Shown: one piece after another, positions 1-4,618 of the stretch
How the letters are laid out: each line of letters opens with the position of its first letter
Position numbering within the stretch: the stretch's first letter is position 1
Source of the DNA: a virus
Taxonomy: Duplodnaviria > Heunggongvirae > Uroviricota > Caudoviricetes
Length of the DNA: 4,618 nucleotides
Virus record (IMG/VR): IMGVR_UViG_2778261589_000015
Strand: one strand, 5' to 3'
Position numbers and translations under genes: made by a program
The notes under the pieces: model-generated
The model's database searches: none
Seen by the model: only the letters and a program-made list of their open reading frames with translations
What the model was told of the DNA's origin: nothing

Positions 1-434
1 GCTGTCAGCTGCGACATCTGCTCCACCACCCAGCGGTCACTCAGCTCCTGCTCCGGGTCCGCCTCCGGATTGCCCGCAACGAAATTCACCGCATCCAGAA
101 AACGGGCATACACCCGGCGGCGGACCACCGTGGCCCCCACCAGGCTCTGCAGGTCCTCCGCCATTCCGGTGACCAGACCGAACAGATTCGACACCGTCAG
201 CGACGGGCGGGCACTGCTGCCCTTCCCGTTCATCTCAAAGCCACTGCCGTCAATCGGGTATGCCTGATATTGCCGCCCCTGCCAGGTAACCGCCTCCCCT
301 TTTTCATTCAGCTCATTACAGAAAAAATACCGCTCACCACCCTGGGCCGTCAGGTCGATTTCCCAGAGTACCACCCGCGGTGACTGCTCTGACTTAACCG
401 ACTCGTTCAGACTTTCTTCGCGAATATCCTGCAT
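1..434 (-). CDS. L: Minor tail protein L, N-terminal ~144 aa (3' end of gene lies beyond the window start)
   Basis: Minus-strand ATG at 434..432, open to the window edge; I checked codons 1..180 by hand and found no stops. Translation begins MQDIREESLNESVKSEQSPRVVLWEIDLTAQGGERYFFCNE... and ends in the window with ...GLVTGMAEDLQSLVGATVVRRRVYARFLDAVNFVAGNPEADPEQELSDRWVVEQMSQLT, which closely matches lambda gpL as I recall it (MQDIRQE...VVLWEIDLT...GGERYFFCNE). The start overlaps the M stop (ATGA). It is absent from the ORF track only because it has no in-window stop. Confidence 0.85.
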   Translation of the reverse strand, partial: MQDIREESLNESVKSEQSPRVVLWEIDLTAQGGERYFFCNELNEKGEAVTWQGRQYQAYPIDGSGFEMNGKGSSARPSLTVSNLFGLVTGMAEDLQSLVGATVVRRRVYARFLDAVNFVAGNPEADPEQELSDRWVVEQMSQLT

Positions 435-763
435 CAGTTCACCACCTGCTTAAACTCCGCGCTGAACTCAACGCGCAACATCCCGACCCGCGCAGACCAC
501 CCGGCACAGGTCACCTTTATCTGCCGGTATGCATAGGGTGGCTTCCACAAAAATGCCTTCCAGCCCCCGTGCTCTGCCAGGAACGCTTCCAGATGCCGGG
601 CCTCCTCCCGGGTCACGGAAAGCATCACCCTGTACGTCTTCAGGTCAGCATTCAGCCCTGCCGCCATACGCTGTGAGTACCCGTCACCAAAACGCACTTC
701 ACGCACCGACGGCTGCGAGTTCACCTCCATATCCGGCTTCACTTTCCAGCGAAAGGTTTTCAT
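434..763 (-). CDS. M: Minor tail protein M
   Basis: 109-aa ORF, the same length as lambda gpM. The sequence MKTFRWKVKPDMEV...VRFGDGYSQR...LEAFLAEHGGWKAFLWKPPYAYRQIKVTCAGWSARVGMLRVEFSAEFKQVVN is near-collinear with lambda gpM from memory. An AGGGAG ribosome-binding site lies 6 nt upstream of the ATG (minus strand, 775..770). The start overlaps the H stop (ATGA at 763..760). Confidence 0.9.
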   Translation of the reverse strand: MKTFRWKVKPDMEVNSQPSVREVRFGDGYSQRMAAGLNADLKTYRVMLSVTREEARHLEAFLAEHGGWKAFLWKPPYAYRQIKVTCAGWSARVGMLRVEFSAEFKQVVN

Positions 764-3372
764 CGCCCGCTCCCTGATAACATACCGCCATCACGCAACT
801 GCAGCCGGAGTTCATCCTGCGCCCCCTTACGGGCCATGTCATACACCGCCTTCATCAGCTGCGGCCCCGCCTGTCCGTTGATACCGTCGTTCTGAATCAC
901 CACGTGATTGTTCTGATTAAAATTAATACCTTCCGCCCGCCGCATCTGCGCCGGACTTCCGGCACCACCCACATAACCACCTTCCGCATAGCCGCGCATC
1001 AGGCGATAAAGATTCCCCACGCCAATCCGGCTGGTTGCCTCCTTCGTGAAAACAAACTCCCCGCGGTGAACTATCCCCGCAGGCTCATATTTGCCGCCCG
1101 TGCCCGTAAATCCGCCGGTCGCAAAATGAAAGTTCGCCGCCGCAGCCTCAATGGCCGTCCCCGAGGAAGCCGTTACACCACCTCCAACAACCCCACCAAT
1201 GGCGCTGCCGATACGCCCGACAATGCCCACCATGGCCTGTTTAAGCAGGATTTCTGTCATCATGGACAGCACCGAACGGGTGAATCCCCGCCAGTCTGCC
1301 TCTGCACCGGTCAGCATCGCCGCCATATTCTGTGCAATACCGTCAAAAGTCTGCGTGGCCACACTTTTAACCTGCGAAAAACTGTCCGTCGCACTTTCCG
1401 CCCACTCACCCCAGCCGGACTTCAGACCGGCCAGCCAGTCACCGCGCAGCATGTCTTCATCCGCCCATGTCTGTTTCAGTGCCCCGGTGACCCGGGCCAG
1501 CGCCTGCGGATTATCGCCATACACGTCACGAAGACGCTGCGCTTCAGACTCCCGCTGCGCCTGACGGTCAGTGAGACCGCGGGCTTTTGCGCTGATGGCG
1601 GCCTGCTTCGCGCTCTGTTGCTCTTCAAACCGTGCTGCCTGCTGTGCAAGTTCATTCAGGCGTTTCTGGTGCTCCACCTTGTCGCCCAGCTCAGCCAGCT
1701 GGCGTTTGTACTCCAGCGTTTCTTTCTCATGAGCCAGCAGGGATTTTTCCTGCCCGGATAACTGCCGTTTCGTGGCAGCCTCTTTCAGGACCGCATACTG
1801 ACTTTCCGCTTTCCATAAATCACGGCGCTGCCGGCTGATTTTCTCATTCGCACCGCTGTGCTTCTCCAGCGTCCTGAGCTCAGCTTCAAGGGCAAGCAGA
1901 GCCTCTCTTGCCTGCTCCTCTTCCCTCTCCCCGGCAGAGCGCGTTTTCGGTGATGTATGCTTTTTACCTGTCAGCTCTTCAGCCAGACGGCTGACGGCTT
2001 CCTGCTGCCCAGGACCTTTGCTGACGCCTGTTGCACGCGAGCGGTTGATGTACCCCATTTCCCCCTGGCGTATACGCGCATCCCGTTCCGCAATGGATTT
2101 TCTCAGCGCCAGTTCATCGCGTTTTGTTTTCTCAATAAATACGCGGTTCTCTTCTGCCAGTTCACCAAACAACGCACCAACGCCGGGCACATTCTTTGTC
2201 GTTTCCCAGGCTGACTGAATAAATTCAGCCAGCGCCAGATCCCCCTGCACAAGCAGCAGCTTCACTTGTTCAACGGTTCCGGCCACCACGTCAGTGATCA
2301 GACTGAGTGCCCCCAGTGTATGATCACCTATCCATGCCCATGCGTCAGAAGTCCAGGTTTTAACATCGTCCCAGATTTTTTCCACCGGCGTGGCCGCTTT
2401 ATCAAGTTGCTCCAGACGTGCATTCATGACATCCGCAAACAGGGACATCGCCTCCGTCACCGCAGCCTGTTTACCTTTCGTGCGCTCAAGCTCATCAATA
2501 TGGCGTAACTGGGAAACGCTCAGGAAGTTATACTGCTGATTCAGGGAGGCCAGCGCCTTCACCGGATCTGCTGCAATCCCTTCAAAGGCTTTTTCCACCT
2601 TCCCGGCATCGTCCCCCACCGTCTGCAGCCATCTCTGAGAGGTTTCCCCCATGATCCGTAGCTGCCCGGCGGTATATTTCCCGCTTTCTGCCAGACGGGC
2701 CAGATTTTCTGCCGCCTGTCTGATACCACCACCGGCTTCATCGCTGATCACCCCGGCCATTTTCCACAATTCTGCCGTTGTGGTGGCAGCCGCCCCTCCG
2801 GTCAGGATCAGTGAACGCAATAAGGCCCGGTCAGCCTGCTCTGCCTGCCAGGCGGCGGCAGCAAGCGCGGCCAGTACGGCAACCCCGCCACCTGCCGCCA
2901 CACGGGCCACCGACATAAATCGTCCCAGCTCACCGGCATTCCGGGCATTTTCAGCCAGTGCATTTGCCGTATCTGACAGCGACTCCTCTGATGATTCAGA
3001 GGCATCCCTGATCCCGAGAAGTTCCTCCTTCAGCAGGGTAAGCAGGCTGAGCGGTCCACCGAATGAATCGCTGATCTGCCCCCCCTGCTGCAGCATGATA
3101 AGGAAGGGATTCTGACCACCGGCAAGCTGAGTGACAATATCCGTGAACTGTGCGGGCAGTGTGCGCATGGCAGCCTTATACTGTCCGACTGATATCCCGG
3201 CTTTTTGTGCAGCCAGCGCCTGTCGGCTCAGCCCCTGTTCAACAGTACTGGCGGTTTTTCTGGCATCCGCCTCCAGACTGGAAAAATGACGGCGTACCCG
3301 GGCCATCTGTTCATCAAACCGGGCCGCATCCAGACTCAAATCAATAACCAGATCACCCGCTGGCTGGGACAT
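760..3372 (-). CDS. H: Tail tape measure protein (lambda gpH family), 870 aa
   Basis: Long ORF in the expected position between G-T and M. The N-terminus MSQPAGDLVIDLSLDAARFDEQMARVRRHF...KAGISVGQYKAAMRTLPAQFTD and the C-terminal half (ELRTLEKHSGANEKISRQRRDLWKAESQ ... FHFATGGFTGTGGKYEPAGIVHRGEFVFTKEATSRIGVGNLYRLMRGYA ... AVYDMARKG) match lambda gpH as I recall it. GGAGG ribosome-binding site on the minus strand at 3385..3381, 8 nt before the ATG. Confidence 0.9.
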   Translation of the reverse strand: MSQPAGDLVIDLSLDAARFDEQMARVRRHFSSLEADARKTASTVEQGLSRQALAAQKAGISVGQYKAAMRTLPAQFTDIVTQLAGGQNPFLIMLQQGGQISDSFGGPLSLLTLLKEELLGIRDASESSEESLSDTANALAENARNAGELGRFMSVARVAAGGGVAVLAALAAAAWQAEQADRALLRSLILTGGAAATTTAELWKMAGVISDEAGGGIRQAAENLARLAESGKYTAGQLRIMGETSQRWLQTVGDDAGKVEKAFEGIAADPVKALASLNQQYNFLSVSQLRHIDELERTKGKQAAVTEAMSLFADVMNARLEQLDKAATPVEKIWDDVKTWTSDAWAWIGDHTLGALSLITDVVAGTVEQVKLLLVQGDLALAEFIQSAWETTKNVPGVGALFGELAEENRVFIEKTKRDELALRKSIAERDARIRQGEMGYINRSRATGVSKGPGQQEAVSRLAEELTGKKHTSPKTRSAGEREEEQAREALLALEAELRTLEKHSGANEKISRQRRDLWKAESQYAVLKEAATKRQLSGQEKSLLAHEKETLEYKRQLAELGDKVEHQKRLNELAQQAARFEEQQSAKQAAISAKARGLTDRQAQRESEAQRLRDVYGDNPQALARVTGALKQTWADEDMLRGDWLAGLKSGWGEWAESATDSFSQVKSVATQTFDGIAQNMAAMLTGAEADWRGFTRSVLSMMTEILLKQAMVGIVGRIGSAIGGVVGGGVTASSGTAIEAAAANFHFATGGFTGTGGKYEPAGIVHRGEFVFTKEATSRIGVGNLYRLMRGYAEGGYVGGAGSPAQMRRAEGINFNQNNHVVIQNDGINGQAGPQLMKAVYDMARKGAQDELRLQLRDGGMLSGSGR

Positions 3373-4215
3373 ATCTCACACCTCCGGAAATCCCCGCTGA
3401 AGCCATCATTAATGCAACATCATCCTCGCTGACATCCACCACATCCGCAGAAGGTGAAATATCGCGCCCTCCGTCCCCTCCGAACCGGACGCCTCCGGCA
3501 ACTCCTGTCGCTTTCTGCATCAGCATTTCTTCCTCGTCCGGCATCTCCGTCTGCTCTTCCTCACACGCTGGAGCAAGCAGACTGAAATCCGCCGGATGCA
3601 TATCCGGATCGCCAAAAAACAGGCTGAGTACGGCGTACATCAGCCCGGAAAAATGAGCGTCCAGTTGGGTATCCTGAAAATAATGCGTGCAGTAAAAACG
3701 TCGCCAGTCGGCATATTCGGTGGATGTCATCCCGGCAAGCATGGCGCGCCAGTCGGGTCTCCCCATCTCTCGCGCCAGTTTCAGGACAAAGTTCAGCTCG
3801 CCTTCGAATGCTTTTTTGATGTTACCGGCTCAGTCGCTTCTGCTTTCCCGGTTTGTTCAGGATCGGCATCGTGCCGGTTATCCAGCATACCTGAAAGATA
3901 AAGCACCCGGTTCGTTGCCTGATTCAGTGCATCAGCAGGCCATCCCAGCATCACTTCACGGCGGATCTGCTGCATCTCTGTCTCCGGAGAGGCCAGAGTG
4001 CCTTTGAGGGAATGGGAATGCCATAGCGACATCGCCACAAGCAGGGATGCCGTTTCCAGATATCGCTGGTTAATGTGCACGACATCATGCTTCGTTGTCT
4101 CCTGTTGTTCTGCGTCTGAAACAAACTTTATATAATCAAACCGCTGCAGCGCAGACAATTCGGAAAGCGTGACGGACACACCGTTATATTCAAATTGTTC
4201 TGTTTTCAGAAACAT
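3353..4215 (-). CDS. T: Tail assembly chaperone G-T fusion, made by a programmed -1 ribosomal frameshift at A AAA AAG (minus strand 3817..3811); predicted product about 287 aa
   Basis: The -1 frame relative to G is open from 3829 to the stop at 3355..3353. The only window in which G and this frame are both open is 3829..3796, and it contains the canonical slippery heptamer A AAA AAG, with zero-frame codons TCA AAA AAG. The predicted junction is ...EPVTSKK/AFEGELNFVLKLAREMGRPDWRAMLAGM... The G-then-T frameshift arrangement is the conserved organisation of lambda-like tail chaperones. The T-frame ORF has no credible independent start in the overlap; the ATG at 3766 is internal. Confidence 0.75.
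3793..4215 (-). CDS. G: Tail assembly chaperone G
   Basis: 140-aa ORF, the same length as lambda gpG. It begins MFLKTEQFEYNGVSVTLSELSALQ and contains LVAMSLWHSH, both lambda gpG-like from memory. GGAGG ribosome-binding site at minus 4226..4222, 6 nt before the ATG at 4215. It lies immediately downstream of V and upstream of the T frame, as in lambda. Confidence 0.88.
   Translation of the reverse strand: MFLKTEQFEYNGVSVTLSELSALQRFDYIKFVSDAEQQETTKHDVVHINQRYLETASLLVAMSLWHSHSLKGTLASPETEMQQIRREVMLGWPADALNQATNRVLYLSGMLDNRHDADPEQTGKAEATEPVTSKKHSKAS
3811..3817 (-). other. Slippery heptanucleotide A AAA AAG (programmed -1 frameshift site for G-T)
   Basis: Plus strand reads ctttttt at 3811..3817. On the minus strand the G-frame codons are AAA (3816..3814) and AAG (3813..3811), preceded by A at 3817, giving the X XXY YYZ form. 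It lies five sense codons before the G stop. Confidence 0.7.
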
Positions 4216-4228
4216 GTATTACCTCCGT

Positions 4229-4618
4229 TTACCCTGCAGCGCCCGCTTCAGTAACGGTGACTTCAGCCACTGCGGCGAACTGACCATTTCCGCTCACCAC
4301 AGGGATCTGCACCTTACCTGTCGCCACGCCGTTTACCGTAATTGTCATATCTTTCACACTAATGGTGGCTTTCGACGGATCGGCGGAAACCGCTCTGAAC
4401 GTCTTGTCGGTTGCACTTTCCGGCTCAAAAGAAACCGTCAGGGTGGTTGTTTTCCCTTTTGCCACCGTACCGGATGTCGGCGTCACCTTAATCGCAGTGA
4501 CCGGCGTAATTTTGCTGCGTTCTTCCGCTACAGAAGGTTTGCCCACGTTGGTCACTTTCACCGTGCGGGTGATCACTTCTTTCGCCGTCACGGCCTTACC
4601 GATACTGCTGACCCAGCC
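4229..4618 (-). CDS. V: Major tail protein V, C-terminal part with Ig-like (Big_2-type) domain (5' end of gene lies beyond the window end)
   Basis: The frame is open to the window edge, reading ...[30 protein letters not shown]... The M at 4591 in the ORF track is an internal GTG, not the true start. The C-terminal sequence [66 protein letters not shown] resembles the Ig-like C-terminal domain of lambda gpV from memory. TAA stop at 4231..4229, 13 nt upstream of the G start. Confidence 0.8.

Follow-up and report, generated by a model that had tools for sequence, protein, structure and literature searches.

A very likely lambda-type G/G-T programmed −1 frameshift at A_AAA_AAG in the tail module of a Shiga-toxin-producing Escherichia coli prophage

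The −1 frameshift that joins the lambda tail assembly chaperone G to the product of the overlapping T frame was reportedly described by Levin, Hendrix & Casjens in 1993 and by Xu, Hendrix & Duda in 2004, 2013 and 2014, with the Xu survey of tail-gene frameshifts being said to span 28 phages. The ratio of G to G-T in lambda, ~30:1, is essential for assembly (PMC5009743), and the lambda frameshift rate goes up when tRNA-Lys is under-thiolated (PMC3296357). The single E. coli tRNA-Lys, with the anticodon mnm5s2UUU, pairs poorly with AAG (Atkins 2016, PMC5009743). Sequences with A_AAG, especially X_XXA_AAG, are the most shift-prone motifs in E. coli, A_AAA_AAG being the dnaX site (PMC5009743). The use of A_AAA_AAG in phage tail-chaperone genes is already documented and its efficiency measured, for other alleles: the 3' end of ECs1801, a gene of the O157 Sakai prophage Sp9, is the A_AAA_AAG cassette of Antonov 2013, and the same gene is cluster A_AAA_AAG_25 of Sharma 2014, where programmed frameshifting was considered ‘safely inferred’ (PMC4066793).

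The locus considered here is in a window, the whole stretch of DNA analysed, of 4618 bases. It is a tail module from a lambda-like prophage of Shiga-toxin-producing E. coli (STEC), and all features given below are on its minus strand. A 1-kb piece around the slip site matches O26, O111 and O103 chromosomes with 100 % identity and Stx1a-converting phages with 99.7-99.9 %; with VT1-Sakai the identity is 95 % over 83 % of the piece. From the open reading frame list and Pfam the gene order is V(C-term) - G - T(-1) - H - M, with G, T, H and M all being intact within the window. The 3' part of V, the major tail protein gene (4229..4618; PF16461 and PF02368), specifies a lambda tail-tube C-terminus together with a Big_2 (Ig-like) C-terminal domain. 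The zero-frame product of G (3793..4215) is a tail assembly chaperone of 140 aa and 15.9 kDa, which matches PF06894 Phage_TAC_2 with E = 6.5e-35 and lambda G, over the full length, with 43 % identity (BLASTP, 2e-37). The T segment that would be read in the −1 frame after a slip (3353..3811, 152 aa and a stop) is related to PF06223 Phage_tail_T (minor tail protein T; E = 1.3e-11) and is 70 % identical to lambda T (BLASTP, 1e-72). Then come H, encoding a tape measure protein of 870 aa (760..3372; PF06791 and PF09718), and M (434..763), taken from the open reading frame list. H begins with an ATG at 3372, inside the T frame, so that the two share 20 nt as against 8 nt in lambda, an arrangement in keeping with translational coupling between H and the reading frames that precede it.

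The final codons of G are GTA ACA TCA AAA AAG CAT TCG AAG GCG AGC TGA. The −1 frame is interrupted by a TGA (3832..3830), then open from 3829 to 3356, and stops at 3355..3353, and the sole stretch in which it and the G frame are both open is the 34 nt of 3796..3829, between that TGA and the TGA of G at 3795..3793. Within these 34 nt lies A_AAA_AAG (3811..3817), the first A of which is the third base of a Ser codon, giving the X_XXY_YYZ phase, with the zero-frame AAA-AAG encoding Lys134-Lys135. Of the 12 in-phase positions that the overlap offers, no other holds a canonical heptamer, and neither does any other in-phase position of G. Over four open reading frames just 2 of 1240 in-phase positions hold a canonical heptamer, and AAAAAAG occurs once in the window with both strands counted. 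When the codons of G were shuffled, 2.2 % of trials put an XXXYYYZ of any kind, and 0.3 % an XXXAAAG, into the final ~11 in-phase positions. The preliminary description, made from the sequence alone, had given the same limits for the doubly open stretch, a single canonical heptamer in it that is also the dnaX heptamer, and a variant of a known mechanism rather than a new one. The limits and the singularity of the heptamer are borne out, the equivalence with dnaX agrees with Atkins 2016 (PMC5009743), the designation as a variant of a known mechanism is right, and gene order, homology and codon position support a lambda-type G-T −1 frameshift at A_AAA_AAG.

The lambda (J02459) counterpart of the end of G reads GCG GGA AAG TGT TCG ACG GTG AGC TGA, and A_AAA_AAG aligns codon for codon with lambda G_GGA_AAG, both being five codons before the G stop. 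Shared with lambda, in addition to this codon position, are the order V-G-T-H-M, homologous G and T, the −1 direction, the A-site A_AAG, the downstream sequence and a predicted RNA stem. The differences are few. The P-site codon is AAA (Lys) in the window and GGA (Gly) in lambda, with a Lys-Lys rather than a Gly-Lys junction, so that in the window both slipping tRNAs would be tRNA-Lys, and the base after the heptamer is C in the window but U in lambda. Given the ORF geometry, phase, homology and positional identity with lambda that are observed, and the site conservation considered next, it is very likely that the tail module of this STEC prophage has a lambda-type G/G-T programmed −1 ribosomal frameshift at A_AAA_AAG; the occurrence of slippage, its rate and a role for downstream RNA structure are inferred.

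A_AAA_AAG is kept in all of the ~70 IMG/VR and GenBank loci in which the identity of G to that of the window is 88-100 %, inducible Stx1a/Stx2a phages among them, and G_GGA_AAG is retained by the lambda-type G genes of E. coli and E. albertii. To widen the comparison, a viral-contig scan seeded with a Kluyvera-type G supplied 80 more loci. At the same position 60 of the 80 have G_GAA_AAG and 14 have G_GGA_AAG, with A_GAA_AAG, G_GCA_AAG and A_AAA_AAG in one each; one further locus has G_GAA_AAG one codon before the stop, and in the remaining two G is cut short and the site is absent. There is a second A_AAA_AAG lineage, locus L178, with a G that is 43 % identical to that of the window. The majority form among relatives, G_GAA_AAG, is a non-canonical one. 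The relatives with it (Kluyvera, Atlantibacter, Entomohabitans and many IMG/VR prophages) share with the window the G/T family, the position of the site, the A_AAG core and the downstream stem, but their P-site GAA can re-pair on GGA only via G:U, whereas the window heptamer, one of two versions in the family permitting it, re-pairs perfectly. Across the G family the P-site codon is GGA, AAA, GAA or GCA and A_AAG is invariant, the Lys codon being AAG in every site-bearing locus and never the commoner AAA. Since the A_AAG core is all that is invariant, slippage of the A-site tRNA-Lys is suggested to be the essential step, and the lambda G-T recoding site is seen to tolerate change of its P-site codon with only A_AAG being fixed.

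The two other systems with A_AAA_AAG are less close. With dnaX, where gamma and tau are the products, the window shares an in-phase A_AAA_AAG and the reliance on the single tRNA-Lys(mnm5s2UUU) (PMC5009743). However, dnaX is stimulated by a Shine-Dalgarno-like element upstream and a tight hairpin downstream, whereas the window has no upstream Shine-Dalgarno and at most a long-range stem, and in dnaX a shift of ~50 % gives a truncated product, in contrast to the low rate and extended product expected here. Unlike that of dnaX, the −1 frame of the window is open for 152 codons, giving 287 aa as against the 140 aa of G. ECs1801 has in common with the window the tail-chaperone function, an EHEC prophage host, A_AAA_AAG and a −1 shift to a longer product, but it comes from another protein family, no similarity to the window G being detectable (E = 1.2), and its stop directly follows the heptamer (AAG_TAG) rather than being five codons further on. 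It was considered as a report of the window's own allele and rejected on account of the unrelated chaperone family. An upstream Shine-Dalgarno stimulator was likewise considered and dropped: no Shine-Dalgarno-like element is present 6-17 nt upstream of the heptamer, and the 20 nt upstream (GCGACTGAGCCGGTAACATC) have no GGAG, GAGG or AGGA core.

How often might ribosomes shift at such a site? All 64 heptamers were measured in identical contexts with E. coli reporters by Sharma 2014 (PMC4066793 Table S3), and the values there for the window heptamer and that of lambda can be compared directly. With no stimulator AAAAAAG gave 0.291 % and GGGAAAG 0.277 %, with IS911 stimulators the values were 4.26 % and 3.80 %, and with the IS3 pseudoknot 39.0 % and 43.0 % (PMC4066793 Table S3). 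Antonov 2013 cloned tail-chaperone cassettes in a GST-MBP reporter, in which one with ...AGA_AAA_AAG_TAG... gave 7 % and one with ...GCG_GGA_AAG... gave 6 % (PMC3711429 Table S2). With reporter rates being near equal in three contexts, AAAAAAG and GGGAAAG are functionally interchangeable, and with AAA for GGA in the P site the window carries a neutral variant of the known lambda G-T frameshift. Because the bare heptamer gives ~0.3 % in reporters, a lambda-like rate needs context effects, which here are predicted ones only. By analogy with these published cases the shift rate at the window site would be a few per cent. The preliminary description had held that efficiency is not given by homology alone; it is better constrained than this implies, given the reporter rates for the same heptamer, including the 7 % of the EHEC chaperone cassette.

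In the proposed mechanism most ribosomes would reach the TGA of G and yield the 15.9-kDa chaperone, and a small fraction, a few per cent by analogy with lambda, would probably shift. The tRNA-Lys(mnm5s2UUU) on the P-site AAA and that on the A-site AAG would slip one base back and re-pair on AAA-AAA, after which the next codon would be GCA (Ala), and decoding would go on in the T frame (GCA-TTC-GAA...) over a further 152 codons. The driver would be that the single tRNA-Lys of E. coli pairs weakly with AAG, making A_AAG slip-prone, and the P-site AAA would serve just to permit perfect re-pairing, like GGA in lambda. The shift product would be a G-T protein of 287 aa (31.9 kDa) with the junction ...T-S-K-K-A-F-E-G-E-L.... 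On translation the predicted G-T consists of G residues 1-135 (...VTSKK) followed by AFEGELNFVLK..., the junction peptide being ...VTSKKAFEGELNF...; for protease mapping it reads ...VTSKKAFEGELNFVLK, and trypsin cuts at the K-K junction. The same VTSKK/AFEGELNFVLK junction had been put forward in the preliminary description, and its mass of ‘roughly 31 kDa’ was near, if slightly under, the value computed here. By homology G-T would bind the tape measure protein H through its G part and recruit the tail tube protein V through its T part, and the G:G-T ratio would be what counts for tail assembly. For Stx phage engineering or induction, the ratio set at this site is, by the same analogy, likely to be essential for tails.

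The lambda site is usually described without a defined stimulatory structure. In the window a structured RNA domain is predicted at 3734..3802 by folding, RNAalifold and covariation (alignments A2 and A4). Its outer 7-bp stem pairs 3802..3796 (GGCGAGC) with 3740..3734 (GCUUGCC), beginning 8 nt past the heptamer and ending at the G stop, and it closes a 55-nt domain rather than forming a simple hairpin; inside it, 3777..3771 and 3748..3742 form a second stem of 7 bp. The minimum free energy of the 86 nt that follow the heptamer is -34.4 kcal/mol (z = -3.15), with 0 of 200 shuffles being as stable. Local hairpins right after the heptamer are weak, -4 to -10 kcal/mol when 40-60 nt are folded, and only the long-range fold is stable downstream of it. 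RNAalifold recovers the outer stem independently, and across 49 distinct homologues its positions are paired in 99.1 % of cases. Of these homologues 27 have A-U as the first pair and 22 have G-C, with no mixed combination; where Gly is replaced by Ser (GGY to AGY), the partner base 62 nt away changes as well through a synonymous Ala substitution (GCC to GCU), though this is covariation at a single pair, possibly reflecting one or two evolutionary events, in a region also constrained by T coding. The lambda gpG cluster was scored ‘structure: Y’ and SD ‘N’ by Sharma 2014 (PMC4066793). Taken as a candidate frameshift stimulator the predicted outer stem is no more than suggestive. With both slipping tRNAs being tRNA-Lys, a further possibility is that the window allele would respond more steeply than that of lambda to the thiolation of tRNA-Lys in its host. 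That the conserved RNA domain would be an uncharacterised 3' stimulator setting the G:G-T ratio across the lambda-G family, or that this allele would prove the more thiolation-sensitive, is a proposition to which we accord a low probability.

Is ribosomal slippage necessary for T sequences to be expressed? An internal ATG (3764..3766) is the start of a separate ‘T’ in RefSeq and GenBank annotations, and an independent T of 14.9 kDa translated from it, with no fusion being made, would accord with every public record checked: RefSeq (PGAP), VT1-Sakai, ASU11, PhiR12_2_star and Stx2_95 all have a stand-alone T from the ATG equivalent to 3766, its annotated length being 102-137 aa, and 991 contigs are catalogued with exactly the 137-aa sequence. 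Against this, the T-frame match to lambda T begins 15 residues upstream of that first ATG, back to the slip site, with the AFEGELNFVLKLARE upstream of the ATG matching lambda VFDGELSFALKLARE. Moreover, the G_GAA_AAG relatives have TTT or TTC (Phe) at the codon equivalent to the ATG, the ATG is directly abutted by a GAGAG run and has no Shine-Dalgarno at a proper spacing, and it sits within a predicted stable hairpin; in lambda the T sequences are expressed as G-T via frameshifting (PMC5009743, PMC3296357). ATG 3766 is probably not a true start codon, and we view an independent T without any fusion as very unlikely. A fusion identical to that expected from ribosomal slippage, with the same ...SKKAFEGEL..., would also be made if RNA polymerase added one A at the six-A run of the slip site to give an A7 mRNA, and single-base insertions by E. 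coli RNA polymerase in A/T homopolymers do rise exponentially with run length (PMC5574713). Nevertheless A6 is short, the known programmed cases using 8-11 A (PMC3711429), and since homologues have only A3 or A4 at the same position (GGGAAAG, GGAAAAG, GGCAAAG) the mechanism across the family cannot be polymerase slippage. The invariant final G, AAG and never AAA, is also a signature of tRNA-Lys slippage rather than a requirement of a homopolymer. Neither the junction peptide nor an AAGAAGG mutation can separate the two routes, because the ...SKKAF... peptide is the same and the mutation would abolish both. The polymerase route is rated as minor, and that it accounts for the fusion is extremely unlikely.

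A third reading, the least probable of these and one that we find barely credible, is that the heptamer arose by chance or survives as a relic in a decaying prophage that makes no G-T and no tails. Defective lambdoid prophages are common in STEC, and in one strain the adjacent tape-measure gene has a G7-to-G6 frameshift; the present prophage might be defective as well, and the site would then be a relic. Conservation argues against it: the heptamer is retained in all of the ~70 related loci, those of the inducible Stx phages included, it is at the exact codon homologous to that of lambda's functional site, where the chance of XXXAAAG is the ~0.3 % of the shuffling, and no gene from G to M in the window is disrupted.

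As many relatives have Phe at the codon in question, hundreds of genomes probably carry a mistaken T start in their annotation. Among complete E. coli genomes > 500 have a near-identical G-T region, as do many Stx phage records, and a join of G and T is annotated in none of the records checked (RefSeq PGAP and the four GenBank phages). The annotation should be a G-T fusion, of 287 aa here, with ribosomal slippage. The fixing of the truncated stand-alone T is the main value of the present analysis, with the lead on a conserved downstream RNA stem being secondary. A search that did not extend to the Xu 2004 and 2013 surveys found no literature report or database annotation of the fusion product of this allele, and nothing specific was found in the literature on the allele in Stx or lambdoid phages.

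Some other features of these sequences merit mention. A scan of genome contigs, as distinct from viral ones, returned mostly lambda contamination and little diversity. A G 100 % identical to that of lambda is present on contigs labelled Neobacillus, Oceanobacillus, Pseudomonas, Kitasatospora, Shewanella, Chromatium and others, many having a coverage near 1 in the contig name, and its presence there is almost certainly due to lambda DNA contamination of the assemblies. Within gene H a G7 run occurs at 3079..3085 in the phase G_GGG_GGG. Strain E2865 has G6 in place of G7 (near 2716 of locus L001), and PGAP calls its copy of H a frameshifted pseudogene; the G7/G6 difference may mark a mutational hot spot or reflect an error in sequencing. 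The tail module has a mosaic make-up, with the window T being 88 % identical to the T of an E. albertii-type module and the window G only 46 % identical to its G, which points to recombination close to the frameshift junction.
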